Shown in pieces: positions 3,113 through 28,620 of a DNA stretch of 64,000 nt. Below the pieces are notes generated by a model, which was not told the DNA's origin, searched no databases, and saw only the letters and a program-made list of their open reading frames with translations. The stretch's first letter is position 1. The number at the start of each line of letters is the position of its first letter. The stretch is from Candidatus Nanoarchaeia archaeon. Lineage in GTDB: Bacteria > Patescibacteriota > Microgenomatia > Woykebacterales > RBG-16-39-9b. The position numbers were made by a program, and so were the translations under genes. The stretch lies in contig DATBWR010000011.1 of assembly GCA_036514715.1 (NCBI GenBank), positions 48,102 through 112,101 of the forward strand, given 5' to 3'.

Positions 3113-5101
3113 TTACTTCAAAAATGGCACCAACAACAAGGCGACTATATTTATCACCTTAATCATTGGGTTTATTGCCGGACCCGCAGTATCTTTATAC
3201 GGATCTCCTACTGTATCGCCGGTAACTGCAGCCTTGTGAGCTTCGCTACCTTTACCACCAAATTTACCTTCCTCAATATATTTTTTGGCGTTATCCCAAG
3301 CAGCTCCACCAGTTGTCATTGACAAGGCGACAAAAAGGCCGGTGACGATCGTGCCAACCAAAAGCCCCCCCAGAGCTTCTTTTCCGAGAATTAAACCCAC
3401 CGTAACTGGAGCAATTACTGGTATAAGAGCCGGGATAATCATCTCTTTTTGCGCTGCTGCGGTCACAATAGCAACTGCTTTAGCATAGTCCGGCTTGGCG
3501 CGCCCTTCCATAATGCCTTTAATTTCTTTAAATTGGCGACGTACCTCATTGACCACACTTCCTGCTGCTTTACCAACTGCTTCCATCGCCAGTGCCCCAA
3601 AAAAGTAAGGCAGAGCCCCACCAATAAATAAACCAATTAAAACTCTAGGATCGGAGATTAAGAAGGCTACTTCTTTCCCAGCTGCCAGTAACTCTTCCGA
3701 GTAGGCGGCAAAAAGCACTAAGGCGGCCAGGGCCGCCGAAGCAATCGCGTAACCTTTGGTAACTGCTTTGGTAGTGTTACCAACTGCGTCCAGCGGGTCA
3801 GTAACTTGCCGCACATTTTCCGACAAGTGCGCCATTTCGGCAATACCGCCAGCGTTGTCGGTAATTGGCCCAAAGGCATCAATCGCCACGATAATTCCAG
3901 TCATGGAAAGCATGGACATCGCGGCCACCGCCACACCGTAAATTCCTGACAAATCGTAGGCAAACCAAGTTGCGGCGGCAATAAGTAAGATTGGCAGGAA
4001 AGTTGCTTTCATCGAGACTGCTAAACCGGCAATTACGTTGGTACCGTGGCCAGTGGTAGAAGCGAGAGCAATTTGTTTAACTGATCCGAAATTTTTCGAA
4101 GTGTAAAATTCGGTGATTATCACCATACCTAAAGTTACTCCCAAACCAAGTAGCGAGGCGTAAAATAGGTCTCCTCCTTGAGAGGCGGGCCAAAACTCTT
4201 TGGTAACCCACCAAAAACCTAGAGCTGCCAAAACTCCTGAGACGACGAGGCCCTGATACAGAGCTCTCATAATCCCAGTTCCCGAAAGTCGAACAAAGAA
4301 CGTCCCGATAACCGAGGCAATGATCGACACTGCTCCCAGTGCTAGTGGATAAAGGACAGCTTTTTCATCACCAGGGAATACTAAAGACCCCAGTAGCATA
4401 GCGGCAATCGAAGTCACTGCGTAAGTTTCAAAAAGATCAGCCGCCATGCCTGCATCATCACCAACGTTGTCACCAACATTGTCAGCAATAACGGCTGGGT
4501 TCCGAGGATCATCTTCTGGAATACCAGCTTCGACTTTACCCACTAAATCAGCGCCAACATCAGCTCCTTTAGTAAAAATTCCGCCTCCTAACCGAGCAAA
4601 AACACTAATTAAACTCGAACCAAAACCAAGACCAATTAAGGCTTTAATATCGCTTGTGAAGTAGTAAAAACCCGCGACAGAAAGCAGAGACAGACCAACC
4701 ACCACAAGACCCGTCACCGCCCCACCTTTGAAGGCCACGTCAAGTGCGGCCGCTAGCCCATCCTTAGCGGCGTTAGCAGTCCGGACGTTAGCTCTAACGG
4801 CGACGTTCATACCAATGTAACCAGCCGCCGCTGAAGCAACCGCTCCAACGATGAAACCAACTGCGGTAACCAAATTAATCTGCAACAGGCCCAAAAAAAT
4901 AACCGCTCCAACTGCCGCAACAACTGTGTATTGACGCTTAAGGTAAGCGCTAGCACCTTCTTGGATCGCTTGGGCAATCTCCACCATTGTTGAGTCCCCT
5001 TGCGGTTGTCGTAAAATCCAAGCAATAAGAATTGCTCCGTAAACCAGGGCAACTGCGCTAGCGGCCAAAATCCAGTAAAGAGTTTGATTGAGATCGAGCA
5101 T
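3113..5101 (-). CDS. hppA: membrane-bound proton-translocating inorganic pyrophosphatase (V-PPase)
   Basis: Diagnostic '[20 protein letters not shown]', 'DNVGDNVGD' and '[17 protein letters not shown]' motifs in a polytopic membrane protein. Start trimmed to the internal Met ([10 protein letters not shown]...), typical of the HppA N-terminus. Confidence 0.9.
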
Positions 5102-5382
5102 ATTAGCTTCAAAGTGTACAACAAACCCAAGGTAAGTTGCAAGCTTACTTGAGGGTTGACAGAAAACCAAACAACCGGCAAAATATAGTTAGTAACGAAA
5201 GTTACGGTATCAAGAGACCCTGAGAGCAATCGAAGGGCGGCAACCCACAACAGGAAGGGTGCCAATTCGCTAACCGTCAGCTGACGGAGGCGGAAGATAC
5301 GCCTCGCATGAGGAACTGTGGACTTAAACACTTCTTTTGCGAGAGGTGTTTTTTGTTGTCAAATAAGAAAGGAGCAGAAAAA

Positions 5383-5646
5383 GTGAAACACTTCTCAATT
5401 AGGGTGCCTGACAGAGAGTTACTGCCGATAGTACAATTCCTAATTAGCCAAACAGGAGGTCGGCATATGAAATTTGTACCACCGTCGCTCTCGACCGACG
5501 GAAGGTACGTTCTATACTTCCAGGTCGAAGATGAAGAGGCCAGCAACACCACTCAACAGATATTACAAGGTCTCAAACCACTGGAAAGAGAGCGCAACGT
5601 AAGTTTCACTCTAATCACCAACGGAGCAGCCCCTAATACTAGTTAG
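5383..5646 (+). CDS. hypothetical protein
   Basis: ORF with a GTG start 9 nt after AAGGAG. The alternative upstream ATG at 5308 lacks an RBS. Confidence 0.3.
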   Translation: MKHFSIRVPDRELLPIVQFLISQTGGRHMKFVPPSLSTDGRYVLYFQVEDEEASNTTQQILQGLKPLERERNVSFTLITNGAAPNTS

Positions 5647-5944
5647 GGTCTGCTCCTTTCTTTTTAACAGCCTAAAGAGTTGACAAACCTCTCAATTTCT
5701 TTTAGACTGATAGTATATAAGTTATTGATATCCTAGATACGGATGAATATCCTTATCCTTAGCAAACTATTAAGATTTCTCTACCATTACAGTCTTGATA
5801 AAAAGAAGGATATTTAATGACACTACAGGGCCTATTTTCATCTACTAACCAACTCTCTAGCGTATATCCCGTCCTAAATTCTGAAACTCCATCCTTCATT
5901 CTTAATACTTTGTACTTATTTTTAAGGGAAGGGGGTGAGAACAA

Positions 5945-6622
5945 GTGCAAGAAATAACTGACGCTGTTACTAATGCTGTCTCCGAAGCACTGTCCGCTGC
6001 TGCCGACTTCCTTCCCAATCTGCTTTGGGCAATTGTTATCTTCGTGGTTGGTGTTATTATTGCGGCCATACTAAGAAACCTCTTAGTAAGAGTTCTTGAA
6101 TTGGTCAGCTTTGAGAGAAGTTTGGCCACTACTGGTATACCGGCCGCTTTAAAGAAAGCCGACCCCGCTCTTACGGTTACTAAGTTGCTCGCTGAACTTC
6201 TCCGCTGGTTTGTGATCCTAGTTTTCCTAGGACCCGCAGTCAGCCAACTTGGACTAGAAGAAGTTAATGATGTTATCAGAGACTTGATTAACTACATACC
6301 CAATATCGTTGTTGCGGTCATTATTGTTACCGTAGGGTCAGTATTTGCCAACATTGCCAGGGACTTTGTGACTGCGACCTCAAGTACCTTGGGCACTCAG
6401 ACTGCAAGAGCCGCTGGACAAATCGCCCGCTGGGCAATTACAGTTTTTGCTGTTCTAGCTGCTTTATCTCAGCTGGGTGTGGCGCAAGACCTCATTAACA
6501 TCCTCATCACCGGTTTTGTGGCAATGCTCGCTATTGCCGGAGGTTTAGCCTTTGGTTTAGGTGGTAAGGAAACTGCAGAATCAATGCTTAAGAAGATGCG
6601 TGAGGAAATGGAAGAGCGGTAA
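5945..6622 (+). CDS. membrane protein with conserved TM-helix repeats (MscS-associated 'TM_helix' type)
   Basis: Repeated amphipathic/hydrophobic segments 'LxxLLxxxxxxxVxxxxxIIxA..', Gly-rich C-terminus. GTG start after GGGAAGGGGGTGAG. Confidence 0.45.
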   Translation: MQEITDAVTNAVSEALSAAADFLPNLLWAIVIFVVGVIIAAILRNLLVRVLELVSFERSLATTGIPAALKKADPALTVTKLLAELLRWFVILVFLGPAVSQLGLEEVNDVIRDLINYIPNIVVAVIIVTVGSVFANIARDFVTATSSTLGTQTARAAGQIARWAITVFAVLAALSQLGVAQDLINILITGFVAMLAIAGGLAFGLGGKETAESMLKKMREEMEER

Positions 6623-6740
6623 CTTTCCCTCGAAAGTCTTTTTAGACAAAGAAAGTCCACCTTTTTTTGGGTGGCTTTCTTTGTTGCAACTTAAAGTTGT
6701 TCTGCAAAGGAGTTTTATTGTAGTATCTATTTGAGAACCT

Positions 6741-8855
6741 ATGCCCAAAGTCGTTCTTCCCTTAGATAAAATTAACCCTAGTGATCAAGATGAAGTTGGT
6801 GAAAATTTTGCTTACCTTGGCAATATAAACTCCCTGGGGGAGAGTTTACCACAAGGGTCAATAGTAACTTTCTTGGGTTTTGAAAAAACTCTCGAACCTC
6901 ATTGGAGACAGCTAGCAGAAATACTTAAAGATGTAAAATTTACCGCTGTAACAGGCGCTTTTCTCGAAAACTTAAAAACTCTTACTCACCAGCGCCTCTT
7001 TCTCCCTGAAGAGGTAGCGGCCGGACTGAGATCTCAAGTAGAAGATCTAAAACCCCCTTTTGAAATAAAAAGTTTAGTTAAAATCCCAAGTGGCGAAGAA
7101 TTTGTCGGAGAGCCTCTTTTGGCTGAAAGTAAAAAAGATCTGGAACCGCTCTTAAAATGGGCTTTCTTGAGCTTCCTTGATAAGGAATTTCTCAAAAAAG
7201 TTGCCGATCCCAAAGTCCTAACCAAAACACTAGTTGCAGTAGCGATTATTCAAAAACTTCAGCCAGACAGACAAGGGTCTGCTCTGATTTATCCGCCAAA
7301 AAAGAACAAAATTGAAATCATGGCTTCCCAAACTGACACAAAAGAAGGAAAACAAGACAAAATTATTGTAGAGACAAATACCCTAACCGTTAGAGATCAT
7401 CAGTCCAAGGCTAGCAAGAAAGTATTGACCGGTCAACAAATACTAAGAATTGCTAAAGTCTTAAAGTTTCTTCAGTCGCAGCTTCTTGCCAGCTTACAAG
7501 CTAGCTTTGAAATTGTCGGCGAGAAGCTTTACTTTACCAATCTTACGGCAGCTGAAGAACCCCAAAATTTTTTATCTACTCCGACTCCGATTAACTTACC
7601 CCTCATTGGTACTTTAAAACCTCTTTTCCCCGGCCTCAGTACAGGAGTAGTTAAGCACATTAACAAACTTTCTGACTTTCGCAAAATTAGAGCTGGTGAT
7701 ATTGCCCTTGTTAGTTCTTTTAGTAAGGGAAATTTTCGTTCTCTAAAAAAAGCTTCGGGAATAATCGTGCGCAAAGGGGCCCATTTCCAAAAATCTCACC
7801 GACAACTGATCGACAGTCTGGGCGTTAGTATGGCAATTGGCGATCTTAACACCTACATCGACGGGGTGGTCACTCTCGACGGAAGAACCGGGAGGCTTTA
7901 TAAAGGTTCTTTCTTCCCACTGGTGAGCAAAATCCTACAACCAAAAGCGCCACAAATCAAGCTTCCGGAAAAACCCTCTATTGCCACCAAAATTTTTGTA
8001 ACCTCTGCTGATTCCAACAATCTTTTAAAATCAGGCTTGGAAGACGTTGATGGCATCGGACCAATCCATTTAGAAATAGTTCTTACCAAAGATGGTTACC
8101 ACCCTCAAAAACTACTTGAGAAGGATAAGGAAAAAACTTTTTCTGCTCTTGTCAAACAGATGGAAGAGCTTTGCAAAAAAGCTTTGGGAAAACCGGTTAT
8201 ATACCAACTACTTGATTTCAAAACTAACGCACTTTCTCACCTTAAAGGGGGTGCGGCTCTTGAAAATAAAGAGACTAATCCAACATTGGGCTTAAGAGGA
8301 ACAAGGAGATCGCTGGAAAATCTTGATTTTCTCAAAGGGGAACTAAAAATCATTAAAGACCTACGCAACTCTCATAATTACAAAACCCTTTGGCTATCTC
8401 TCCCGTTTGTCCGTGACGTGAGTGAGGTTTTGGAAATTAAAAAACACCTTTCAACAGCCGGCTTGCACCGTTCGGCAAGTTTTAAAGTTTTAGTGAGCGT
8501 GGCCGTACCTGCCAACGTCTTTGCCTTAAAAGAATTTTTAGAGGCTGGGGTTGATGGCTTTCTGATTGATTATTGGGAACTAGCTAATCTTACTTACGGC
8601 AGTGATTTTACTTACCAAGAACTAATTAAACTCACTGACCCAAGTTTGGAGGACCTTGTCTCCCAAGTAGTGACTTTTGCTTCAAAAAATGGTCTTTTCA
8701 GCGGTATTTACAACCTCCCACCGGAGACTGAAAACAACATTCTCAAAAAAGTAGTCACTTGGGGAATAAAGTCAGTAAGTATTGGTCCTGATTTAGTTGG
8801 ACCTTTAGCTAAAAGTCTCTCCAAGGCGGAACAAGAGTTAGTTGCAGGAGACTAA
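6741..8855 (+). CDS. PEP-utilizing enzyme family protein (PEP synthase / pyruvate phosphate dikinase-like, divergent N-domain)
   Basis: Mobile phospho-His domain ('GAHFQKSHRQLIDSLGVSMAIGD') and a C-terminal PEP-utilizer TIM-barrel ('NPTLGLRGTRR'). N-terminus 'VGENFAYLGNI' resembles PpsA 'VGGKNASLGEM' but lacks the Lys. Confidence 0.6.
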   Translation: MPKVVLPLDKINPSDQDEVGENFAYLGNINSLGESLPQGSIVTFLGFEKTLEPHWRQLAEILKDVKFTAVTGAFLENLKTLTHQRLFLPEEVAAGLRSQVEDLKPPFEIKSLVKIPSGEEFVGEPLLAESKKDLEPLLKWAFLSFLDKEFLKKVADPKVLTKTLVAVAIIQKLQPDRQGSALIYPPKKNKIEIMASQTDTKEGKQDKIIVETNTLTVRDHQSKASKKVLTGQQILRIAKVLKFLQSQLLASLQASFEIVGEKLYFTNLTAAEEPQNFLSTPTPINLPLIGTLKPLFPGLSTGVVKHINKLSDFRKIRAGDIALVSSFSKGNFRSLKKASGIIVRKGAHFQKSHRQLIDSLGVSMAIGDLNTYIDGVVTLDGRTGRLYKGSFFPLVSKILQPKAPQIKLPEKPSIATKIFVTSADSNNLLKSGLEDVDGIGPIHLEIVLTKDGYHPQKLLEKDKEKTFSALVKQMEELCKKALGKPVIYQLLDFKTNALSHLKGGAALENKETNPTLGLRGTRRSLENLDFLKGELKIIKDLRNSHNYKTLWLSLPFVRDVSEVLEIKKHLSTAGLHRSASFKVLVSVAVPANVFALKEFLEAGVDGFLIDYWELANLTYGSDFTYQELIKLTDPSLEDLVSQVVTFASKNGLFSGIYNLPPETENNILKKVVTWGIKSVSIGPDLVGPLAKSLSKAEQELVAGD

Positions 8856-9338
8856 ATGAGTAATGAGGTTGAGCGCCGATTTTTAGTGGATATTAACCGT
8901 CTACCCAAGCTCTCTCAAGGTTCCTTGCAAGTCCAAGGCTATTTTAACAACGCACCAAGCGATCAACCCGAAATCCGCATCCGAGTAGAAGAGTCCAAAG
9001 CAACTCTAACCTTAAAAACCTCCATAACCGCCGTGACTCGTCAGGAATTTGAGTATGAAATCCCCCTGAAAGATGCTCTAGCTTTGCTTTCCCTAACCGA
9101 GAAGAGAATACGCAAAGTTCGCCATCACCTTAAACTTAACTCTAAGACTTGGGTAATTGATTTTTTTCAGGATGAAAATTCTCCTTTAGTTATTGCTGAA
9201 ATTGAACTAAAAAATGAGGATGAAGCTTTCGAAAAACCTCTCTGGACCACCAAAGAAGTAACCGAAGATCTGCGCTTTACAGCCATTTCCCTGGCTTTCG
9301 ATCCTTACAGCCAATGGGTTTCTAAAGAAGGTACTTAA
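8856..9338 (+). CDS. CYTH-domain protein (triphosphate tunnel metalloenzyme; inorganic triphosphatase/adenylate cyclase-like)
   Basis: N-terminal 'EVERRFLV' (ExExK-type signature), about 160 aa. Start codon overlaps the stop of the upstream gene (TAAATG). Confidence 0.7.
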   Translation: MSNEVERRFLVDINRLPKLSQGSLQVQGYFNNAPSDQPEIRIRVEESKATLTLKTSITAVTRQEFEYEIPLKDALALLSLTEKRIRKVRHHLKLNSKTWVIDFFQDENSPLVIAEIELKNEDEAFEKPLWTTKEVTEDLRFTAISLAFDPYSQWVSKEGT

Positions 9339-9350
9339 CGCTGGTAACTG

Positions 9351-9396
9351 AAAAAAGAAAGACCGTACACTAGGTGTATACGGTCTCGTAGTTTTG
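9351..9396. terminator. bidirectional rho-independent terminator
   Basis: AAAAAAGAA-AGACCGTA..TACGGTCT-cgtagTTTT between convergent genes. Confidence 0.5.
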
Positions 9397-9401
9397 CCTC
9401 T

Positions 9402-10217
9402 TTAGTCGAAGTCCAGAGTCCCTGGGTTCTTCCAGTCTTCTTCGGTGATGTAGAGAACAGCCAAAGGCTGCTTCAAACCGGGGCGGGTGAAAACCAGCAG
9501 GAAAGGTCTGTTGATGGTGTAGTCAGGCTTTGGGAACTCGAGGGCAGCTCCAATCAACATGGTCCCTCTGAATTCACTCCTGATGTGAGCCCCAACTTCG
9601 TTCATGCGCAGTTTCGTCTCCTGAGACGCTGCAACGAGACTGGTGGGACCCAGATCCGTGGGAGTCTGCATTCCCACAAGGTAGCTCACGTCGTTGTTAT
9701 GACGGAGATCAACCATTGGGAAACAGACCCCGCCATAATCGTAGATCGCCTCTTTCTGCTCAATTAGCGCAGTCGCCAACGATCTCAGCTGAAGGTGGTC
9801 AGGCGCTTCGGCCAGCATTGTCATATACAGGACGTCTTCTGTCTGGGTAGGAAATTCAACGATTGGCCGATGATGCGCGCCCGACATCCAGAAACGGACG
9901 TGTGCCCCCTTCTGAGTGAGACGAACACCTTCCCATTGCTGGTCCTCACGCTTGATCTTGGTTGTACTTCCTCTCTCGACCCACTTGACCAACAGGTCAA
10001 GAACCCCTTTGACAGACAGTTCGTCACCTTGGAGTGAATAGTCGCTTTCAAGGGACCTAATCCCCTGACCAACTTCCTCCCGAACTTCTTCGAAAACCTC
10101 GCTTAGAAAGGCTTCCTGTTCGGTGTTGCTAGGTGTCCAGCAACGCTTCGGTCCAAGTACTGCCTCAGCCCCCACCAAAGCAGCGACGATTGGGTAGGTA
10201 ACTTGTGAAGTGCTCAA
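9402..10217 (-). CDS. hypothetical protein (GC-rich island)
   Basis: 271-aa ORF, about 52% GC, distinct from flanking DNA. No secure family assignment. Confidence 0.45.
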   Translation of the reverse strand: MSTSQVTYPIVAALVGAEAVLGPKRCWTPSNTEQEAFLSEVFEEVREEVGQGIRSLESDYSLQGDELSVKGVLDLLVKWVERGSTTKIKREDQQWEGVRLTQKGAHVRFWMSGAHHRPIVEFPTQTEDVLYMTMLAEAPDHLQLRSLATALIEQKEAIYDYGGVCFPMVDLRHNNDVSYLVGMQTPTDLGPTSLVAASQETKLRMNEVGAHIRSEFRGTMLIGAALEFPKPDYTINRPFLLVFTRPGLKQPLAVLYITEEDWKNPGTLDFD

Positions 10218-10238
10218 AGTTCTCTCCTTAGTGGTGGG

Positions 10239-10607
10239 TCACTGCCCTACTTGGCTGCCTACGGAAGAAAGTTCCGTCATAACCGCCTCGGTCTCCATCT
10301 TGTCGATCACGACAACTCCCGAAGTCTCTTCCCAGTTGTACAAACCGGTAAAGACAACTACCCTGATGTCCGGGTATGCTTGTTTGACCTGGCGAGCTTT
10401 GTCAATCATTCCTCGGGTGAGGAAGATGACTTTGTCTATTCCACCCCAACCGATAAGGGTTTGGGCATCGTCAAAGGAGTTTACGGTTACAGCCTCTGCT
10501 GACTCTGAAACCTTTCGTTGAACTAAACCAGCCCAAGCGTCGTAGTCCCCTCTCTCGGAAGACAGCAACCCCCACTCACCTTCTTTTACAATTAATACCT
10601 TTGTCAC
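10239..10607 (-). CDS. hypothetical protein (GC-rich island)
   Basis: 122-aa ORF co-directional with 9402..10217. Confidence 0.4.
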   Translation of the reverse strand: MTKVLIVKEGEWGLLSSERGDYDAWAGLVQRKVSESAEAVTVNSFDDAQTLIGWGGIDKVIFLTRGMIDKARQVKQAYPDIRVVVFTGLYNWEETSGVVVIDKMETEAVMTELSSVGSQVGQ

Positions 10608-10702
10608 AGGTATCTCCCTCCATTTTCAGATGTACCAATTATAGCAAACTAGTTCAAGAAAATTTGTATTTTATATCAAAATGTTAGAGTAGCGTTTAGT
10701 AA

Positions 10703-10731
10703 TTGAAATTTTAGCCTTGATTTGGTATCAT
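10703..10731 (+). promoter_or_regulatory. promoter for tRNA-Lys (TTGAAA-17-TATCAT)
   Basis: -35/-10 pair ending about 11 nt before the tRNA 5' end. Confidence 0.4.
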
Positions 10732-10742
10732 ATCTTGGTCGT

Positions 10743-10818
10743 GGGCCTGTAGCTCAATTGGTAGAGCAGCGGCCTTTTAAGCCGCGTGTTCAGGGTTCGA
10801 GTCCCTGCAGGCTCACCA
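10743..10818 (+). tRNA. tRNA-Lys (anticodon TTT), CCA encoded
   Basis: Manual cloverleaf: acceptor GGGCCTG/CAGGCTC, D-arm GCTC-AATTGGTA-GAGC, anticodon stem GCGGC/GCCGC with loop CTTTTAA, T-arm CAGGG-TTCGAGT-CCCTG. Confidence 0.85.
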
Positions 10819-10870
10819 AAATCTTCTTTTCGTTTCAAAAATAGATCGCTTCGCGCTCTGCGTTCGGGAA

Positions 10871-10940
10871 CTTAAGCCGCGTGTTCAGGGTTCGCCTTTC
10901 GCCAGAAGGGCGAATGGGTGTGTTGTCCCTGCAGGCTCAC
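10871..10940 (+). repeat. partial duplicate of the tRNA-Lys 3' half, interrupted by a 31-nt hairpin insert
   Basis: cttaagccgcgtgttcagggttcg + [cctttcgccagaagggcgaatgggtgtgttg] + tccctgcaggctcaccaaaa. The flanks are identical to tRNA positions about 33-57 and 60-76. Confidence 0.6.
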
Positions 10941-10969
10941 CAAAAATTTGCTACCGAAGCCCTATAGTA

Positions 10970-10998
10970 TTGACTTTCTGTCCTCTTTTCTCTATAAT
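10970..10998 (+). promoter_or_regulatory. consensus sigma70 promoter (TTGACT-17-TATAAT) driving a roughly 210-nt structured leader
   Basis: Perfect -35/-10 hexamers with 17-nt spacer. The leader contains a long-range stem CTTTAGTGCT...AGCACTAAAG. Confidence 0.45.
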
Positions 10999-11213
10999 CC
11001 GTTTGTTACTGTCGGCACAATTAATAGTTCTCCAAAGAACTGCTCTTTAGTGCTGATTTGAATACACTTTCCTCGCACCTTAACAACTTAACTAAGGAGA
11101 GCACTAAAGTGAACCTTTGGAATTGGAGGCAAAGTTACGTTCCACCCAAATTCAGCAGGTAGTTCAACTCTTTCACAAAGCACATCCATCCATATCAGAA
11201 AGGAGAGGATAAG

Positions 11214-12212
11214 ATGAAGTTTGTAGCTAAAGCGGTTGCTTTAGCGCTTCTGGCTTTTTTAGTGCCGTACGTGGTCTTTGCTGACTACGTTACCGACGCG
11301 GCCCAGGCTTTAAAGAAGACGCCCGTCTACGTGGCTCCCGACACCGAAGGGACGGACAAGGACACTGCCGGCAAATTGCAGGTAAAGCTTGCCAAGGATG
11401 ATAACATCGTCTTGGTCATGCTCCCGGCTGCAGCAGAAGCCAAGCTCGGAGCAGATATCACCACAATTGCAAGCCGCCTGTCTGAAGAGCTTGAAAATAA
11501 GCGCATTATCGGCCTTGCGGTTGGCAACAACGTGGTGGGATACGCTCCCATGCTACCTGCGGGTGTTGCAGCCGACCAAATGAGGCGCGCAAGAAGCGTC
11601 TCCAACGATCCAGTAACGGCACTCGGCACCTTTGCTCAGAACATTCACATTTGGCAAAGTGAGAATCCGGAGCCGGAACCATCACCGATCGAGACACTCA
11701 AGAAAGGGGGCAGTTCACTTTTCCTAGTGTTAGGCATTGCTGTCGTCATTGTCCTCGGGGTCGCCATCATGGCTGTCCTATTATGGGACACAACGGCACA
11801 ACAACCTAGCACGGAAAAGATGCACTTCAAAGCTCCCGATCACGTCAAAGACTTGTTAGCAACAATCGCAAGAGAACGTGAGCAGGTCAACGACGGGGAA
11901 CTCAAACAAGTGTTGTATCAAATGTGCGTGGATATCGAGAAATACTTCGTGAAAAGCAGTAGCGACAAGAAGAGGGATGCCCTTTTCTTTAGAGACCGCT
12001 TGACTGAAGTCACTCAAGTCCTGACTAAATACGTCGATGTCCAGGACAATCCGCGCTACTACCGCACCCCCGCTGACGAATTGGCTCTGGCCAAGAAGTC
12101 GATCACCGACTTCTCCGACTACGTCCTTGAGTCTATCAGGCGCGGCACTGCCGAAGACCTGTTTGACTTCAGGGTCAACACCAACATTCTACAGGCTCAG
12201 CGATTTCGCTAG
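11214..12212 (+). CDS. membrane protein with signal peptide, central TM helix and cytoplasmic C-domain (TPM/XpaC-like partner of TelA?)
   Basis: Signal peptide, TM segment 'LFLVLGIAVVIVLGVAIMAVLLW', immediately upstream of a telA-like gene. Family assignment uncertain. Confidence 0.45.
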   Translation: MKFVAKAVALALLAFLVPYVVFADYVTDAAQALKKTPVYVAPDTEGTDKDTAGKLQVKLAKDDNIVLVMLPAAAEAKLGADITTIASRLSEELENKRIIGLAVGNNVVGYAPMLPAGVAADQMRRARSVSNDPVTALGTFAQNIHIWQSENPEPEPSPIETLKKGGSSLFLVLGIAVVIVLGVAIMAVLLWDTTAQQPSTEKMHFKAPDHVKDLLATIAREREQVNDGELKQVLYQMCVDIEKYFVKSSSDKKRDALFFRDRLTEVTQVLTKYVDVQDNPRYYRTPADELALAKKSITDFSDYVLESIRRGTAEDLFDFRVNTNILQAQRFR

Positions 12213-12235
12213 CCACAAGTGAAAGGAGTACGGAA

Positions 12236-13537
12236 ATGACACATCAACCAACCCAGCCCGAAATCCAGGTGTCCCCGCACTTTGCTGCCACCATTCCGGC
12301 GGAACCCAAGCCTACCGCTCAGGTAGCGGAGCTCTCTGCTTTGTCGGTCAGCCCCGAGAAACGAGAGATGCTCGTCTGCCGGCAATTGCTTAAAGGTGAC
12401 ACCCTCGTTAGGGCACAGACAGAAGCAGCAGACGTACTGCCGAAGATGCTGTCCAACACCCAGGTGCTGGCGGTTTTCGGAAACGATGCGCTCGAATCTG
12501 TCAACCGGTTAACCGACCGGATGCTAGACGAGCGCCCTCCGGTAGACGTTCCAGAGCTGCGTGAGGTCATGAGGGATCTTTCCCGCCGCATGCGTGGTAT
12601 CGGCCGGAAGTACGACCCCAGCGACGAAAAAGCACTGGAGAAGTACAAGAAGGCTAAGGGGCGTTTCCTCGGCTTGTTCCGTCTCGGCAGGACCTTCCTC
12701 GAGGAGTTCCTGGACGACATCCGCTCGCTTCAAGGGCAGTGCGACTGGGTCATCGAAAGACTCGATGGTAAACAGAACCAACTGCTCAGAAACGTCACCT
12801 TCTACGACGAGTACTACAAGCTCAATGAGACGGAGATCGACAAGCTAATCTACAAGATCGGCGTCATGGAGATCATCCGCGACATGGCTGCCGAGCAGGC
12901 CAACCGCATCGTTGTCGGCGACTCCAACTTGGGAGACCGCAGCGGCGAAGAGCAGGCTCGGATTTCGGAACTCGTCACCCTCCTTGAAAACAAGATCATC
13001 GCGTTCAAAGGACGGCTTTGGGTTGCATGGGCAATGGCCCCGCAGACACGCAACATGCGTGTTATCCAGGTAGGTCTGTCAGCCCGCATAGACCAGACTG
13101 TCGACATCACTATCCCGACCATGAAGGGAACTATCCTCATTTGGCTCACGTTGGGCGACGCCGAACAGGCGCAACAGTTCAACGCGGCTGTGGAGGACAC
13201 GTACAACCAGGTGCTGACGCTATTCGCGAATGCTGCAAAGGCCACCGTGCCTGCGATAGCAAACGCGCTGGTGACACCGGCTCTGGACCCTCGGACCGTG
13301 GTGGCATGGACCGAGTCTCTAGTGGCCCAGGCCGACGGATTCATTCAGGCGATCGAACTCGGCCAGCAAAAGCGGGCAGAGCTCGAACAGGCGATGATCA
13401 ACGGCAAGCAGGTTATCGATGAGGCTACCCAAAGGGTAAACCAGGCTCAGATCGAGCACGTTCTCGAACTCGCCCGGCAAGCCGCTCAGGAGACACCTCT
13501 TCAGATCGCCCGATCCGTTCCCGCCGCGCAAAGCTAA
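12236..13537 (+). CDS. TelA/KlaA-like toxic anion resistance family protein
   Basis: About 430-aa coiled-coil-rich protein with the overall TelA architecture, paired with an upstream membrane protein as in xpaC-telA loci. GC-rich codon usage. Confidence 0.55.
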   Translation: MTHQPTQPEIQVSPHFAATIPAEPKPTAQVAELSALSVSPEKREMLVCRQLLKGDTLVRAQTEAADVLPKMLSNTQVLAVFGNDALESVNRLTDRMLDERPPVDVPELREVMRDLSRRMRGIGRKYDPSDEKALEKYKKAKGRFLGLFRLGRTFLEEFLDDIRSLQGQCDWVIERLDGKQNQLLRNVTFYDEYYKLNETEIDKLIYKIGVMEIIRDMAAEQANRIVVGDSNLGDRSGEEQARISELVTLLENKIIAFKGRLWVAWAMAPQTRNMRVIQVGLSARIDQTVDITIPTMKGTILIWLTLGDAEQAQQFNAAVEDTYNQVLTLFANAAKATVPAIANALVTPALDPRTVVAWTESLVAQADGFIQAIELGQQKRAELEQAMINGKQVIDEATQRVNQAQIEHVLELARQAAQETPLQIARSVPAAQS

Positions 13538-13606
13538 GCGCGAACTGTCATAGCTCACGAACTAGGTTGTTTTTAAGCAGCCTAGTTCCCAAATCCCAGG
13601 AGGAAT

Positions 13607-14578
13607 ATGATGTTTAGATCATCGATAGTGGTGGTGGCTGTACTTGCAGTCGCTACCCTTCTCCTCGCCTGCACGGACACCGGAGTATCAACAGCCAGTT
13701 GCGCTTTCGTAGTTGGTGATGGTCAGGGTGGCCGGGATGCCAAGCTGCACAAGATTGTCTATCCCGGTCAGAAAGTTAACAAGGGTGAAAATGAAAACGT
13801 CTCTTACGTTCCTTGTAACTCGCGGAACTACATCGTCAGCGACGGGACAGTCAAAGATGCCAACGGAAACGTTGTAGGCGACCGCACTCAGCTGATCACG
13901 GCAACCACCAAAAAAGGCGTGCAGATCGAGTTGGCAGTGACGGCTTATTGGACTCTCAACCAGTCCGAAAGAGCTATGCGCAACTTCTACAACGTCTGCT
14001 TCAAGTACCAGTGTGCGAGTAAAGACGACCAGGCTGGTACCGCCAACAACTCCACCCCTGGCTGGAACGACGTACTGGGTGAGAACTTCGGTCCTGCTTT
14101 GGAGAGAGCAGTCAAGTTGTCTGTCATCAAAGCGAATGACACCATCTGGAGTCAGCGCGACCCGGGGGAGTTCAAGGCTCTTGCGGACAACATCTCTGCC
14201 GCTTTCGCCGACGAGATACGGGCAACCCTTGGATACCCCGAGGATTTGTTCTGCGGTTCGGGAAACTCCACTTGGAGCGACCCGGACAAGCCCGGCGAAG
14301 GAACGTTCACCTGCACTCCGGTGCGCATTGTCGTTGACGACGTGCAACGTGGACTGGTCAGGGCGGATGAGAGCACGCAGGGTGCTGCGGAAATAAATAC
14401 GCAGCGTCTCAAGAACGCGGAGGCACTCTACGGACCTGGTGCGGGATATTGGCTTGCGCTTCAAGACCTGATCGATAAGTGCAAGGCTGCCGGCACAACG
14501 TGCATCATCAATCTTGGTGGTGCAACGACCGGCCCGGCAGTACCCGTCCCCGTAACCACCCCAACTGCTCCACGGTAG
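13607..14578 (+). CDS. lipoprotein (signal peptide with LLLAC lipobox)
   Basis: Strong RBS AGGAGG before ATGATG, lipobox 'LLAC', Cys-containing secreted domain. The fully overlapping antisense ORF was rejected. Confidence 0.55.
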   Translation: MMFRSSIVVVAVLAVATLLLACTDTGVSTASCAFVVGDGQGGRDAKLHKIVYPGQKVNKGENENVSYVPCNSRNYIVSDGTVKDANGNVVGDRTQLITATTKKGVQIELAVTAYWTLNQSERAMRNFYNVCFKYQCASKDDQAGTANNSTPGWNDVLGENFGPALERAVKLSVIKANDTIWSQRDPGEFKALADNISAAFADEIRATLGYPEDLFCGSGNSTWSDPDKPGEGTFTCTPVRIVVDDVQRGLVRADESTQGAAEINTQRLKNAEALYGPGAGYWLALQDLIDKCKAAGTTCIINLGGATTGPAVPVPVTTPTAPR

Positions 14579-14596
14579 CAAGTCAGTTTTAGTTAA

Positions 14597-14668
14597 ACAC
14601 CCTCGCCGAGTCAAACTCGGGTTCCGCCAAAAACGGAATTTCTTTTTAGAACGAGGGTGTCTTTTTTT
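14597..14668 (+). terminator. compound rho-independent terminator
   Basis: Nested hairpins (ACACCCTCG...CGAGGGTGT enclosing CCGAGT-caaa-CTCGG and TTCCG-ccaaaaa-CGGAA) followed by TTTTTTT. Confidence 0.55.
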
Positions 14669-14701
14669 GCTTTAATCTCAATTTAATTCTAAAATAGGAT
14701 T

Positions 14702-15388
14702 GTGGAAAAACTGCAGCGCAAATACATGCTATCTCGTGAGACTCCTAAGATGGGTCTTGCCGAGAAAACCAAAATTCTCTCCTCCTTCCCTATGTTCGAA
14801 GAGACCTCGACCGCAGAACTTAAGGAAGTAGCCACTAAAACCCAACCTGAAGCTATCCTCCCTATGGAAGTTTTTGTGGAGGAAGACCGTGACGAGCACC
14901 AGGCCTATTTCCTTTACCAAGGCGCTGTCTCGGTTTTTCGAACCACCAGCGAGGGGGAGATTATTAACTTAGATCTTCTAGGCGCTCCTAACCTAGTTGG
15001 TGAGGTGGGGTTAATTGAAGATAAGTCAAGCCCTGCCAGTATTATCGCCATCGAAGAAACCCGAGCACTTGTACTTTCTCAAAAAGATTTTCAGGCCCTT
15101 GTGAATAAAAATCCTAAACTGGCCCTAAACTTACTCAAAGTGTTTGCCGACAAAATGCGCGATTTTGATCTTTTTATTGAAGAGCTCCTCTCTAAAAATC
15201 TGTACGAGCGCACCTGGAACATGCTCCAGTTTGTCTCTCAGTATTTTCCCAAAAGGGAAATTACTCTATCGCAGGAACAGTTGACCGATCTTCTCTGGGG
15301 TACAAGATCAAGAGTGACTGAAGTTCTCAACAAACTTGAGACAGAGGGAAAAATAAAAATTGGTCACCGGAAAGTAAAGGTTCTTTAA
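14702..15388 (+). CDS. Crp/Fnr-family transcriptional regulator
   Basis: cNMP-binding-like beta-roll region followed by a C-terminal HTH ('LTDLLWGTRSRVTEVLNKL'). Confidence 0.7.
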   Translation: MEKLQRKYMLSRETPKMGLAEKTKILSSFPMFEETSTAELKEVATKTQPEAILPMEVFVEEDRDEHQAYFLYQGAVSVFRTTSEGEIINLDLLGAPNLVGEVGLIEDKSSPASIIAIEETRALVLSQKDFQALVNKNPKLALNLLKVFADKMRDFDLFIEELLSKNLYERTWNMLQFVSQYFPKREITLSQEQLTDLLWGTRSRVTEVLNKLETEGKIKIGHRKVKVL

Positions 15389-24909: not shown

Positions 24910-26046
24910 CTAAGGTAGTTCGCATTTAATCAGCGTTTCTCCAGTGGTACAAGTGTCGATTCCGGAATTCCCGTTCAGATTGTCGGTTCCCGGACCACCG
25001 TCAAGTGAGTCATTGCCCGAACCCCCTTTGATATTGTCATTGCCGTTTTCCCCAAAAAGTTGGTCGATACCACTGCCACCGTCAATGTTATCGTTTTGGT
25101 CTCCGCCAAAGATTTGGTCGTTATCGCTGCCGCCTTTAATATTGTCTTCTCCCACTCCGCCGGTGATCTGGTCATCGCCGCTGCCCCCGTCAATGGTGTC
25201 GTTGCCAATCCCACCGTCAATCAAGTCGTTGCCAGACCCGCCTTTCAAATTATCGTTGCCTTCTCCGCCGACCACCAAGTCGTTACCGCTGCCACTGTCA
25301 ATAGTATCGTTGCCACCCTCACCCAAAATCACGTCGTTACCGCTGCTGTCGTTAACTCGATCGTTACCTTCACCGCCGACAATACAGTCATTACCACTAC
25401 CACCGTCAACCCGATCATTGCCCTCCAGAGCAAAAATCAGGTCGTTATTAGGTGTACCACGGATACGGTCGTTGCCGCTGGTTCCGAAAATTGGGTCACC
25501 GGTAAAATCAATGTCGTCGCAATCTTCGGGCGGGGCAATAACTATGCCAATAGAAAGGTCAAAAACAACAGTCGCCGTCTGAAATTCATTACCGGCACTT
25601 TGGGGAAAACAAACTGTGAAATCGTAATCAAAATTTTGACCAGAGTTGAGGTTACCCAAACTCAGGGCGTTAGGACCAGCGCTATCAGTGAAAAATTGGT
25701 CCAGAGTCTGTGGACCGTAAAGGCTGGTGGTTGTCGTAGAGTTTTCGATTTCGATTTCCAGAACCGACCCCAACGCAAGGTCTTCGTCGGTTTTTACACC
25801 GCGTACGCCAACTTCGCGGGTGACGGCTCCGGTATTAAGCACGTTGACTGTGCGGGTTTCACAATCCCCCGGTTTCATGTCATTGACCACAAAAATTGGA
25901 TCGCCACTGGGAACTCCCCAATCAATATCCAAATCCCCGACTGCCCGCACTGTGCTGGGGAACAAAGCATTAGCCACTGCCACGCTGATAAGTGCCAGTG
26001 TCAAAACCCCTATTCTAATAACCTGAAACTTTCTGTTTTTCTTCAT
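24910..26046 (-). CDS. secreted protein with RTX-type calcium-binding nonapeptide repeats
   Basis: More than 15 tandem 'GG.GND.I.' units (GGSGNDLIDGGIGNDTIDGGSGDDQI...). Signal peptide. Start overlaps the stop of the upstream gene by 4 nt. Confidence 0.75.
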   Translation of the reverse strand: MKKNRKFQVIRIGVLTLALISVAVANALFPSTVRAVGDLDIDWGVPSGDPIFVVNDMKPGDCETRTVNVLNTGAVTREVGVRGVKTDEDLALGSVLEIEIENSTTTTSLYGPQTLDQFFTDSAGPNALSLGNLNSGQNFDYDFTVCFPQSAGNEFQTATVVFDLSIGIVIAPPEDCDDIDFTGDPIFGTSGNDRIRGTPNNDLIFALEGNDRVDGGSGNDCIVGGEGNDRVNDSSGNDVILGEGGNDTIDSGSGNDLVVGGEGNDNLKGGSGNDLIDGGIGNDTIDGGSGDDQITGGVGEDNIKGGSDNDQIFGGDQNDNIDGGSGIDQLFGENGNDNIKGGSGNDSLDGGPGTDNLNGNSGIDTCTTGETLIKCELP

Positions 26047-27230
26047 TGGTCACAATTTCCAAACTCAGCTGTAATGGCGTCAATATCGAAACCATCTGCG
26101 TCTGATGTATGTGAATTGGGAAATGGTGTACTCTCCGTTAACCTTACGAACTTAATTGACGAAAGTCCTGTCCCAGAAAAACCCAACTCACTAATACCAT
26201 CGCCACCAACACCTGGTTCGCTAGTAACGTTACCTATGTTGTAATAAGTTATCCCATCCTGACTGACCTCAACTGTGGCTTGTTCTAACGGATATGTTGC
26301 TCGTCCGTTAGTTGCTTCATAAAAAGTAAGTATCGCAGGACCAACATCGAGAATTTGGTATGGAAAAACATAGGTGGCTACACCAGTATAAAACCCAAGA
26401 CTATAAAATCCTGTACTTCCACCAATAACCCAATCTTTTATTAATGCGGCATTGGGATCAGTTCTAGCCGGATTAGTTATTGGCGACCCATTTTTCAAAG
26501 TTCCTTGAGTTGTTTCCTCATCGATGTAACTAGCTAGTAGAGTTGGGTTCTCGTCGCAAAAGGCTTCGGCAGCAGAAAATACATTATTAGTACTCGTTTC
26601 AACATCACTGAAAAACGCGTGGGAGCTTCCCAAAAATATTGCGGCCATGAAAAACATCGCAAAAGGTTTAGCAAAGTCTAAATTGCTACTTTTCTGTGGT
26701 TTTTTCTTTAATTCTTCCCAAATGGAAATTAATTCGGAAATAATTATTAATAAGGTGGGAATGATTATCAGCAGGAAAAAGCCTAAGGGTTGTTTAACAA
26801 AATCCACAAACCTTCCAACATAAGGAACAGAAAGGTTAACTCTGCCAACCACGTCTTTCTCAGCAGTCAAAGAGCTGTCAGGGTCTTCGTTAGCATCTCC
26901 CTTTGTTTCAAACATTTTCTCGCCAGTGGCGCGATCCACTCTTACTACCCGGTGACTGACTAGCTCACTACCGGATTTAAAAGTGACAATATCACCTTCA
27001 ACGTAATTTACTCCCGCACCATCAAGGGGCTTTTTAGTTACAAGCACTAGGGAACCAGCCGGAACAGCGGGCTCCATACTGCCTGTCTTTACCACTAAAG
27101 GTTTTAGCGGTAAAGGCAAATTTAAGTACGCACCGATTGTCAGCAGCATAATGCTGCCAAACACGAGCAGTGTAGTTAATTTAAGTGTCGTTAGTAATAC
27201 TTTCAAACCTATACTCCAAATCCTTGACAA
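26043..27230 (-). CDS. SipW-type (S26B) signal peptidase I fused to a SipW-cognate signal peptide plus TasA-like substrate domain
   Basis: N-terminal half: TM, 'KTGSMEP' (Ser), 'VSHRVV' (His), 'KGDANEDPD' box, second TM. C-terminal half: 'KKKPQKSS..FAMFFMAAIFLGSSHAFFSDVETSTNNVFSAAEAF', which matches the SipW-cognate signal class, then about 190 aa. Confidence 0.7.
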   Translation of the reverse strand: MSRIWSIGLKVLLTTLKLTTLLVFGSIMLLTIGAYLNLPLPLKPLVVKTGSMEPAVPAGSLVLVTKKPLDGAGVNYVEGDIVTFKSGSELVSHRVVRVDRATGEKMFETKGDANEDPDSSLTAEKDVVGRVNLSVPYVGRFVDFVKQPLGFFLLIIIPTLLIIISELISIWEELKKKPQKSSNLDFAKPFAMFFMAAIFLGSSHAFFSDVETSTNNVFSAAEAFCDENPTLLASYIDEETTQGTLKNGSPITNPARTDPNAALIKDWVIGGSTGFYSLGFYTGVATYVFPYQILDVGPAILTFYEATNGRATYPLEQATVEVSQDGITYYNIGNVTSEPGVGGDGISELGFSGTGLSSIKFVRLTESTPFPNSHTSDADGFDIDAITAEFGNCDQ

Positions 27231-27343
27231 GGCCGGGCCTTGTCACCACTTGTCACCAACAATGCAGCTTTCCTCTTCGAGGTCCGAGGCCCCCAAGGTC
27301 CTCTTTGCTGTCCAAGGGGGCCTTAACTTTCAAACCTCGGACT

Positions 27344-28207
27344 CTAGAACCCTAGTTTCGAAGGGTTATTCCTGTGCTGAACCACTTGGAAGGACATGTT
27401 CGCTACCAAACTGTCTGTCTCGATTACATTACCAACACCTTCCGGAAGTTCCCAATCAATACCGAAGTAATAAGTTGTACTTCCAACCATACGTCCGTCT
27501 GATACAATCCCTGGGCTAGCTCCTTGGAGAGCGAAAACGGCAGCTAATCCTTGCCAAATGTTATGCGTTTCACTACCTGCATCAAGTGTACCTTGGGAAA
27601 CTAGCTCTGGTTCTTCTGCCTGTTTAATGTTGTCACCTTCTTGTGGGTCAGCACCACATTCAGCACCTAACCCTGAACACTGGAACCCATTGTTAGTTCC
27701 TTCATCTAACCAAATGCTGAACAGAAGATTTTCACGTAATTCCCCACTTGCTACTCCGTCAGGATCGCCTGCTTCCAATTCCTCTTGAAGGTAGGTGTTC
27801 TCTAGATCTTGAACACTGTTAATCACTAATCTTCCCCAAGCGTCGTTGTTAATAACGTGGAGACTGATTGTATTCTCACCACTATCACCAGGCTTGAGGT
27901 CGGAAAGATTGAAGAATTTGTGTGTTGGACCCAAGTCTGTTTGTGCCCAAGTACCGTCACAAGGATCACCCACCAAATCTGGTCGACTTGAACTTGTAGC
28001 TTCAAACTGCCATTGACTACTGGAATTACAGACTAATCCTGCGTAGTGGGCCTCGCTGTCAACCTTTAAGTCAAGACCTCCGGCCGAAAACGTGTTGCCA
28101 GTTGAAGTTTCACTATCGGTGAAGAAGGCGAAGGTGGCACCGATTAAGAGGGCTGCGGCGGCCGCGATCGTCAGACCGCTTGTTACCAATCTTTTGTTGA
28201 TTGTCAT
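27344..28207 (-). CDS. TasA/camelysin-like secreted protein with SipW-cognate class signal peptide
   Basis: 'KRLVTSGLTIAAAAALLIGATFAFFTDSETSTGNTFSAGGLDLKV' matches the SipW-cognate signal consensus (..GTFAyFSDtE.StgNtFtAGtLDL). Confidence 0.75.
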   Translation of the reverse strand: MTINKRLVTSGLTIAAAAALLIGATFAFFTDSETSTGNTFSAGGLDLKVDSEAHYAGLVCNSSSQWQFEATSSSRPDLVGDPCDGTWAQTDLGPTHKFFNLSDLKPGDSGENTISLHVINNDAWGRLVINSVQDLENTYLQEELEAGDPDGVASGELRENLLFSIWLDEGTNNGFQCSGLGAECGADPQEGDNIKQAEEPELVSQGTLDAGSETHNIWQGLAAVFALQGASPGIVSDGRMVGSTTYYFGIDWELPEGVGNVIETDSLVANMSFQVVQHRNNPSKLGF

Positions 28208-28239
28208 TTATTTATTCACCTCCTCTCATATGATCTATA

Positions 28240-28273
28240 ATCACTATAGGTGTACACCTCGGAGGTGTACATT
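28240..28273 (-). promoter_or_regulatory. conserved palindromic upstream motif, copy 2 (GGTGTACACCTC-G-GAGGTGTACA)
   Basis: atcactataggtgtacacctcggaggtgtacatt, about 35-65 nt upstream of the 28207 start. Perfect 10-bp inverted repeat TGTACACCTC/GAGGTGTACA. Confidence 0.45.
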
Positions 28274-28591: not shown

Positions 28592-28620
28592 CCAAGCGGG
28601 TCTGAGTTTAATTATTTTGG
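28592..28620. repeat. 29-bp direct repeat, copy A (flanks the TA cassette)
   Basis: aagcgggtctgagtttaattattttggaa, identical to 29151-29179. Further partial similarity (attaattagg.ttatg.gg) about 20 nt downstream in both copies. Confidence 0.6.

Follow-up and report, generated by a model that had tools for sequence, protein, structure and literature searches.

In the 64,000-nt stretch of metagenomic DNA analysed here (the window), which is a part of contig k141_2535758 (208.7 kb) from the European Nucleotide Archive, genes for an XpaC-like membrane protein, TelA and a lipoprotein of predicted SPFH fold form a GC-rich cassette, that is predicted to be a single transcription unit from promoter to terminator. 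Comparison with related genomes indicates that the cassette was probably exchanged laterally within the Candidate Phyla Radiation (CPR), so that the copies of the window and of a Levybacteria genome would share a common ancestor much younger than that of the two genomes themselves. The genome itself is that of a Levybacteria-like CPR groundwater bacterium: the cassette proteins have their best matches in Candidatus Levybacteria, and other genes of the window find reciprocal best hits in Levybacteria RIFCSPHIGHO2_02_FULL_40_18 (GCA_001782235.1; hereafter 40_18) with 30–64% amino acid identity. A metagenome-assembled genome (MAG) with an identical TelA is named 'Candidatus Nanoarchaeia archaeon', a label that is evidently wrong.

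Lateral exchange is proposed because the synonymous divergence (dS) of the cassette genes is 0.5–0.7 while the neighbouring orthologues are saturated. Between the window and 40_18, positions 11197–14582 are 82% identical at the nucleotide level, the three cassette proteins have amino acid identities of 0.76, 0.87 and 0.875, and the identity at four-fold degenerate sites amounts to 0.61–0.63. Outside the cassette, a Crp-type regulator and four other reciprocal best hits show amino acid identities of 0.30–0.64 and four-fold-site identities of 0.27–0.41, i.e., saturation. The regulator, a Crp/Fnr-family protein with a cyclic nucleotide-binding domain and a helix-turn-helix domain by Pfam (14702–15388, forward strand), has host-like GC content at third codon positions (GC3, 0.45) and adjoins the cassette also in 40_18; it is 64% identical to its counterpart in the 40_18 contig L003, with synonymous sites saturated. 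The conservation of the cassette extends to the spacer between the first gene and the TelA gene, which is 83% conserved between the two genomes. Compositional convergence was considered as the cause of this similarity and rejected, since the chance identity at four-fold sites, calculated for GC3 of 0.7, is just ~0.29. An overlapping antisense gene as the cause of low dS was also ruled out, since the antisense open reading frames (ORFs) are not conserved. Both genome types, that of the window and that of 40_18, are found in the same samples.

The same three genes, in the same order, occur in Levybacteria, Collierbacteria and Saccharimonadales and on MAG contigs labelled 'Gammaproteobacteria' and 'Chloroflexota'. 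In Levybacteria 40_18 the cassette is placed between NusA and Crp (at least 24 contigs; L003-5, L007, L095), in the Logan contig L006 it follows Crp and DUF1684, and in Collierbacteria and Saccharimonadales it has other neighbours. In most of these genomes the flanks are poorer in GC3 than the cassette. The GC3 of the cassette compared with that of its flanks is 0.60–0.73 vs. 0.30–0.46 in L003, 0.52–0.69 vs. ~0.3 in L065 and 0.43–0.59 vs. 0.28–0.37 in L009; the excess is over 0.3 in L003 and L065, whereas in L010 and L011 the cassette is nearly ameliorated, with an excess of ~0.1. Contig L019, labelled Saccharimonadales, is itself GC-rich (63%) and carries all three cassette genes (GC3 0.77–0.91), and a GC-rich CPR reservoir of this kind is plausible. 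As to the direction and mechanism of transfer, we infer that the cassette would circulate among CPR lineages and that its synonymous sites would owe their high GC to a gene pool richer in GC, in which the cassette resided or with which it was exchanged, and to incomplete amelioration. CPR-type cassettes are also present on records called 'uncultured Gammaproteobacteria' (including the 915-kb chromosome OZ246414.1) and 'Chloroflexota bin_27', the labels of which look wrong.

Within the window the compositional difference is pronounced. The mean GC content is 0.45; in 300-nt segments it rises to 0.50–0.61 over 9350–10550 and 11150–14600 and goes down to 0.40–0.46 at the tRNA-Lys gene and cassette leader and beyond the island. 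Five ORFs within 9402–14578 have GC3 of 0.54–0.71: on the forward strand the three cassette ORFs of 332 aa (11214–12212, GC3 0.61), 433 aa (12236–13537, 0.71) and 323 aa (13607–14578, 0.63), and on the reverse strand two ORFs of 271 aa (9402–10217, 0.59) and 122 aa (10239–10607, 0.54). The remaining 52 ORFs of the window, each of at least 100 codons, have a mean GC3 of 0.427 (sd 0.052), which places the island ORFs at z = 2.1–5.4. In 2.5-kb segments, 11251–13750 and 12501–15000 are the top two tetranucleotide outliers of the 64 kb (L1 distances 0.46 and 0.44 vs. 0.226 ± 0.06). An earlier note on this DNA had described a GC-rich island of ~9400–14580 in poorer flanks and proposed exactly such sliding GC, GC3 and tetranucleotide analyses, which bear it out: the composition is non-uniform. 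The shift is chiefly synonymous, with Arg/Lys and GARP/FYMINK just slightly different. The long antisense ORFs, which the same note took for spurious, are present and vary in length (296 codons here, 166 in L004 and 94 in L006); since these lengths are not conserved in relatives, the antisense ORFs can be regarded as by-products of high GC content. The sole compositional outlier outside the island is a 153-aa ORF on the reverse strand (42204–42665, GC3 0.59) with no Pfam match, which may be a small foreign gene or a spurious ORF.

An abrupt change of composition in a metagenomic contig brings to mind a chimeric assembly or contamination, in which DNA of two organisms has been joined, and the earlier note had put this forward as one of two explanations. 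The abruptness of the change, at intergenic regions that bear hairpins, is all that speaks for it. The junctions are reproduced elsewhere: L082, a 24.6-kb contig of a different assembly, matches 3402–13319 with 100% identity, ten short contigs from other runs (L083, L084, L087-L094) are 98.3–100% identical to parts of 5339–12269, and the JGI contig L002 spans 12031–14485. Thus the left and central junctions, i.e., that between the CYTH gene and the 271-aa gene and that running from the 122-aa gene over the tRNA gene and its duplicate to the cassette, are spanned at 98–100% identity by contigs of at least eight other assemblies. On the right, 14580–14700 is covered, among the contigs compared, by the window contig alone; the counterpart order of terminator and then Crp is, however, found in L003-5 and L095. 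Moreover, the GC-rich cassette is embedded in AT-rich CPR DNA in the at least 24 contigs of Levybacteria 40_18 mentioned above and in other, independent CPR genomes. The GC jump is real and not an assembly artefact, and a chimera can be practically dismissed.

Several observations weigh against lateral exchange, at least in its simplest form. The orthologous Crp gene stands beside the cassette in both Levybacteria, which fits old residence and overwriting better than two independent insertions and is also compatible with strictly vertical descent under unusual constraint. TelA is GC3-rich (0.54–0.91) in almost all CPR sampled, so that a simple recent import followed by amelioration is not the full explanation; repeated exchange with a GC-rich pool may account for it, and so may a persistent GC-favouring process. 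The genome-wide baseline of divergence is built on few neighbouring reciprocal best hits (about five, plus Crp). Neither mobility genes (integrase, transposase) nor repeats, direct or inverted, were found to delimit the cassette, and the two copies of the tRNA-Lys 3′ half, described below, are next to each other, with their starts 95 nt apart, and not at the two ends of the island. Given the Crp adjacency, it is no less likely that an incoming homologue replaced a cassette already in place than that two new insertions took place.

The shared Crp adjacency, the GC3-rich TelA genes, including those of syntenic Ter islands in three Saccharibacteria species, and the absence of mobility genes at the cassette can all be read in favour of vertical inheritance, in which the cassette and Crp would be old residents of Levybacteria, and the high GC3 and low dS would result either from selection for codon usage or mRNA structure, acting at synonymous sites, or from gene conversion with a GC bias at a hot spot of recombination. 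We regard this as doubtful. Non-coding parts of the cassette are conserved as well. Highly expressed genes are GC3-poor in both genomes (0.37 for L19 in the window; 0.33–0.38 for S15, IF-2, NusA and PNPase in L003), which makes translational selection for GC-ending codons unlikely. The GC3 excess over the flanks ranges among hosts from ~0.1 to 0.55, as it would for differing stages of amelioration, the contexts of the cassette differ, and at the syntenic site of a relative (contig L096) it is missing. The gene-conversion variant, in turn, needs exchange between lineages and so merges with lateral exchange within CPR, the explanation that we prefer.

A GC-rich source outside CPR was also considered, namely a direct recent import from a high-GC actinobacterium, either a host or a neighbour. 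In a pattern-based scan of GTDB representative genomes, relatives of TelA were found in CPR (44–87% identity) and in Actinomycetota (28–41%) only, the latter including Micromonosporaceae, Propionibacteriaceae and others. In the actinobacteria a gene for a ~198-aa XpaC protein (PF10112) is situated upstream of telA, and in Micropruina the 332-aa protein has a homologue over its full length. In addition, Saccharibacteria carry TelA within GC-rich Ter islands, and the TerC/TerD/vWA-TerF gene set of these islands is typical of actinobacteria. However, the lower identity of actinobacterial TelA is joined by a neighbour-joining tree that unites the CPR sequences in a single clade, with the actinobacterial ones as its sister; none of the actinobacterial loci examined was found to hold a gene for the SPFH lipoprotein, all source-named homologues of which are from Levybacteria; and the promoter and leader are AT-rich and conserved in CPR. 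Such an import is therefore very improbable. The actinobacterial origin that the lipobox remark of the earlier note suggests is contradicted also by the closest relatives of all three cassette proteins, that are from CPR. An ancient link between CPR and actinobacteria is plausible for TelA and XpaC. In the Saccharibacteria L014, L022, L035 and L047 (~4200–10300 or 5400–11300), TelA is accompanied by TerC/DUF475, vWA-TerF-like and TerD genes; GC3 of these islands reaches 0.9 vs. 0.25–0.40 in the flanks, and gene order is kept in three species.

The cassette appears to carry its own expression signals. Its sigma-70-type promoter, TTGACT-17-TATAAT (10970–10998, forward strand, promoter scan), matches the consensus at 11 of 12 positions and is followed by a leader of ~210 nt that ends at the ATG at 11214, in agreement with what had been noted before. 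The promoter, the early leader and the terminator stem are homologous in 40_18 (L003/L004), and the homology starts ~11 nt past the tRNA duplicate. Since in 40_18 the upstream neighbour is a different gene, NusA, the promoter belongs to the cassette and travels with it, and the notion that foreign genes had been placed under a host promoter has to be abandoned. The 227-nt leader folds no better than shuffled sequences (z = −0.54), which gives no evidence for a riboswitch or structured RNA in it. Early in the leader there is a perfect palindrome, AGTTCT-N4-AGAACT (11026–11041), the sole exact match in the window; it is located ~20–40 nt past the inferred transcription start and has the same offset from the promoter in L003 (~8620–8635), whereas a search upstream of more distant cassettes did not recover GTTCT-N4-AGAAC. 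The palindrome may be an operator or an RNA hairpin, and the neighbouring Crp-family regulator could possibly control the cassette through it, with AGTTCTCCAAAGAACT as the candidate site.

At the other end, the cassette is closed by a compound intrinsic terminator (14597–14668, forward strand), in which an inner hairpin (14619–14641) is enclosed in a larger stem. The outer stem is kept in L004 (~12370–12440) with a compensatory change, CTCG/CGAG vs. CTTG/CAAG; written in full, ACACCCTCG...CGAGGGTGT is replaced by ACACCCTTG...CAAGGGTGT, and the inner part differs. On the left, a 12-bp hairpin with a T-run, and an A-run on the other side (9359–9387, terminator scan and sequence), is located between the convergent CYTH and 271-aa genes and coincides with the left edge of the GC-rich DNA. 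Both bounding hairpin terminators of the earlier note were thus recovered, the right one as the compound structure.

The TelA protein (433 aa) matches PF05816 with E = 9.6e-24 and 84.5 bits against a cut-off of 30, residues 73–390 being aligned to positions 11–322 of the 332 in the profile; by hydropathy it has no transmembrane segment and is cytoplasmic. Its gene directly follows, on the same strand, the gene of the 332-aa protein, from which it is separated by a 23-nt spacer with a ribosome-binding site. The AlphaFold2 model of the 332-aa protein (mean predicted local distance difference test score, pLDDT, 89.4) and its hydropathy depict a bitopic membrane protein with a signal peptide, an alpha/beta ectodomain (~24–150), a transmembrane helix (~170–191) and cytoplasmic XpaC-like helices (~205–331). 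By itself the protein stays below the threshold of PF10112 (E = 0.8, 10.1 bits vs. 29.8), with a collinear alignment of residues 203–322 to profile positions 69–187. Compared as a family with actinobacterial XpaC proteins, it is aligned by hhalign over 142 columns with a probability of 99.5% and E = 6e-23; nine of the ten actinobacterial proteins compared match PF10112 (best E = 5.5e-9), as do 7 of 13 and 5 of 45 family members in two sets (best E = 1.4e-7). On these alignments, the C-terminal domain is assigned as homologous to XpaC. The earlier description of a TelA-like protein preceded by a signal-peptide/transmembrane protein, as in xpaC-telA loci, thus agrees with both the PF05816 match and the hhalign result. 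TPM (PF04536) was not matched by the 332-aa protein at E ≤ 10, nor by the 13 and 45 family members at 0.05–0.1. A Foldseek search with the ectodomain returned nothing from the PDB at E ≤ 0.001; ninth in rank was 2kpt, the N-terminal domain of cg2496 (probability 0.93, TM-score by target 0.60, sub-threshold E = 0.66), which we take to be a TPM structure. On these searches, the TPM-likeness named in the earlier note is tentative.

The third product, of 323 aa, has hydrophobic residues 1–28 with the lipobox LLAC and Cys22, which is invariant in 40 homologues, and is a predicted extracytoplasmic lipoprotein. Eight further cysteines are conserved in the family and presumably form four disulfides. 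The AlphaFold2 model (pLDDT 88.8, predicted TM-score 0.79) has an SPFH/Band-7 fold with long helices, and in Foldseek it matches erlin, prohibitin, HflK/C, stomatin and flotillin (E 7e-8 to 1e-5, probability 1.0) over ~275–330 aligned columns, i.e., nearly full length, with 43 PDB matches at E ≤ 0.001. The sequence is below the threshold of PF01145 (E = 0.015, 15.8 bits vs. 23.6), to which five of ten family members give weak matches, and none of the 111 homologues carries a Pfam domain. The lipobox reported in the earlier note is there; the actinobacterial style ascribed to it has no counterpart in the distribution of the family, which was found in CPR only, and the predicted fold is that of SPFH proteins. 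PADLOC and NCBIfam returned nothing for the five island proteins, and sequence searches of the PDB gave nothing significant for the 271-, 323- and 122-aa proteins or for the family profiles of TelA and the XpaC-like protein.

The cassette resembles the xpaC-telA (yaaN) operon of Firmicutes (B. subtilis xpaC-yaaN, L. monocytogenes lmo1966-lmo1967, E. faecium), in which the gene of an XpaC-domain membrane protein is placed directly upstream of the TelA gene and co-transcribed with it. It differs from this operon in that the XpaC-like domain follows, within one polypeptide, a signal peptide, a secreted alpha/beta domain of ~125 residues and a single transmembrane helix, whereas the actinobacterial XpaC proteins compared have hydrophobic N-terminal segments instead of the ectodomain, and in that a third gene, for the SPFH-fold lipoprotein, is added. 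With SPFH/Band-7 scaffolds (HflK/C, QmcA, stomatin, prohibitin, flotillin, erlin) the 323-aa protein shares the predicted SPFH domain and long helices, and with HflK/C the extracytoplasmic side; unlike them, it would be anchored by a lipid at the lipobox in place of the N-terminal transmembrane helix, it has the eight extra cysteines, and there is no FtsH or NfeD partner nearby. Another likeness is to Ter (tellurite-resistance) stress clusters, which Anantharaman, Iyer and Aravind reportedly described in 2012 as comprising TelA, TerC, TerD and vWA-TerF. The cassette shares with these clusters a member of the TelA family; however, no Ter-family Pfam match was found in the island proteins or among the called genes of 2236–23537, and the partners of TelA here are XpaC-like and SPFH proteins. 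Finally, PspA-associated Band-7/TPM operons (B. subtilis ydjFGHI type; PMC11237479) also bring together, as putative membrane-stress operons, a Band-7-fold protein and a membrane protein with a small ectodomain of alpha/beta type, but the cassette has no PspA, and the soluble helical partner is here replaced by TelA. The phage shock protein survey that describes these operons makes no mention of TelA (PMC11237479).

What might such a set of proteins do? The xpaC-telA operon of E. faecium was linked to daptomycin tolerance and binding and to the organisation of phospholipid domains (PMC6811118), and lmo1966-lmo1967 of Listeria was reported, in a passage of PMC12791056 that cites Collins 2010, to affect susceptibility to nisin and tellurite. 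Band-7 and TPM proteins are recurrent partners in membrane-stress systems and operons (PMC11237479). Because of these Firmicutes phenotypes, and because SPFH- and TPM-type proteins recur in membrane-stress operons, the cassette is proposed by analogy to be a membrane- or envelope-stress module of the xpaC-telA type. Outside the membrane, on its surface, the SPFH lipoprotein would assemble into an oligomeric scaffold, which the membrane-spanning XpaC-like protein would connect with TelA in the cytoplasm. It counts against this proposal that the protein complex and the stress role are deduced from Firmicutes homologues and from folds. The horizontally acquired stress/toxic-anion resistance island of the earlier note survives in part, as an xpaC/telA-type envelope-stress operon in a genuine accessory island; the host promoter does not. 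A still broader proposal would combine origin and function: the unit of XpaC-like protein, TelA and SPFH lipoprotein might be a CPR-specific cassette that spreads and overwrites itself among the distantly related Levy-, Collier- and Saccharibacteria without mobility genes, is kept GC-rich by frequent exchange (possibly through GC-biased gene conversion), and encodes a trans-membrane machine with an external SPFH cage, linked by the bitopic XpaC-like protein to TelA in the cytoplasm, guarding the membrane of these ultra-small episymbionts. Taken as a whole, this proposal is rather unlikely to be correct.

The site at which the cassette resides in the window was compared with contig L096, which was found by a metagenome scan with the 3′ half of the tRNA-Lys gene, this half being identical in both. 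The order in L096 is CYTH, a 201-aa ORF, tRNA-Lys without a duplicate, a glyoxalase-family gene, YraN and RNase HII, with amino acid identities to the window of 67% for CYTH, 72% for YraN and 67% for RNase HII; GC3 of the genes at this site is 0.31–0.44 throughout, and there is no GC-rich gene, Crp-type regulator or tRNA duplicate. Since L096 keeps the frame CYTH...tRNA-Lys...YraN-RNase HII without them, the frame is conserved, and the GC-rich genes on both sides of the tRNA gene, as well as the Crp regulator, which thereby falls within the variable segment, are lineage-specific content. The region is a variable hot spot of accessory genes around tRNA-Lys with two unrelated GC-rich modules, and the earlier suggestion of an accessory island of foreign-looking composition at tRNA-Lys is corroborated by its absence from syntenic L096. 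The island phenomenon itself is conventional. Like other tRNA-associated genomic islands, the region combines foreign composition, a tRNA site, duplication of the tRNA 3′ half and an empty site in a relative; unlike them, it has no integrase, its repeats lie next to each other and not at the ends of the island, the tRNA gene has accessory DNA to its left and to its right, and the cassette has its own promoter and terminator and no recognisable mobility functions. Beside the cassette in 40_18 there is also a cluster of peptidase S8, M73-like, LTD and HemolysinCabind genes (L003/L004, 13924–21302), which has reciprocal best hits at 24910–31703 of the window, ~10–17 kb from the cassette, in inverted order and with 30–53% amino acid identity, so that the two genomes, although related, differ by rearrangement.

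The tRNA-Lys gene (anticodon UUU; 10743–10818, forward strand; ARAGORN and Rfam RF00005, 72.4 bits) encodes its CCA end and is preceded by a promoter-like site, TTGAAA-17-TATCAT with a TG element (10703–10731, forward strand, promoter scan). In 9000–15000 it is the sole type of Rfam hit at E ≤ 1. The adjacent partial duplicate of its 3′ end, mentioned in the earlier note, is confirmed as an exact repeat, from the anticodon loop to CCA plus AAA (10872–10945, forward strand), that is split by an insert: 10872–10894 equals 10777–10799, 10925–10945 equals 10801–10821, and the 30-nt insert (10895–10924) replaces one T-loop base and forms a hairpin with the 6-bp stem TTCGCC/GGCGAA. The insert is confined to this strain group, and the duplicate is present also in the 98.3%-identical variant strain L089. 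The duplicate region folds no better than shuffled sequences (z = −0.33). Its geometry has the form expected when an integrase attaches at the anticodon loop and leaves a repeat of the 3′ half, and it is most simply read as a scar of integrase-type recombination at tRNA-Lys. An element would once have integrated between tRNA-Lys and the already resident cassette and would later have been deleted down to 53 nt, so that the distal copy, which abuts the cassette promoter, would be the original 3′ half. The island is not flanked by direct repeats of the 3′ end of the tRNA gene, of which the only two copies are tRNA-proximal; no Pfam family of integrases, recombinases or transposases was found among the called genes of 2236–23537 (21 kb) or in the island proteins; and the tRNA-Lys 3′ half, as a candidate attP, was not found in viral contigs of IMG/VR. 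The tRNA-Lys gene followed by AAAATCTTCTTTTCGTTTCAAAAATAGATCGC constitutes a putative junction for an integrase-bearing element behind the scar.

The second GC-rich module, to the left of tRNA-Lys, consists of the two reverse-strand genes. The 271-aa protein alone has no Pfam match. Most of its 113 homologues, however, carry a precomputed PF00079 assignment, and the family profile finds PAI-1 and other serpins in the PDB (E = 4e-7), with residues 204–276 aligned to serpin positions 307–376, i.e., to the reactive-loop and C-terminal region. The protein has neither a transmembrane segment nor a signal peptide and is cytoplasmic; members of the family are ~270–295 aa long, ~100 residues below the matched PDB serpin chains (370–430 aa), and on this evidence we class it as a short serpin-like protein. 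The family is patchily distributed (Ktedonobacteraceae, Acidobacteria, Patescibacteria (CPR), Lokiarchaeota), and closer homologues are lone GC-rich genes in unrelated contexts of AT-rich CPR-like contigs (L085, 2262–3092; L086, 5432–6256; GC3 0.54–0.58 vs. ~0.3). The gene is an accessory acquisition separate from the cassette. The co-oriented 122-aa gene, 21 nt upstream, is present on 11 contigs of the same population, and its product has no match in Pfam, NCBIfam, PADLOC or PDB. Two hypothetical proteins were counted here in the earlier note; the 122-aa one still answers to that description, the 271-aa one is instead serpin-like.

The region serves as a worked example, with an empty-site relative and a contrast of divergence, of how a sudden rise of GC within a metagenomic CPR contig can be genuine biology and not misassembly. 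GC-rich islets recur in AT-rich CPR genomes (TelA cassettes, Ter islands, short serpin-like genes) and offer material on gene flow and amelioration. New are a version with three genes of the xpaC-telA envelope-stress module, itself poorly understood, and an unannotated, presumably disulfide-rich, lipid-anchored protein family of predicted SPFH fold, detected in CPR loci only. A laterally shared module for membrane protection could bear on the life of CPR bacteria attached to their host cells.

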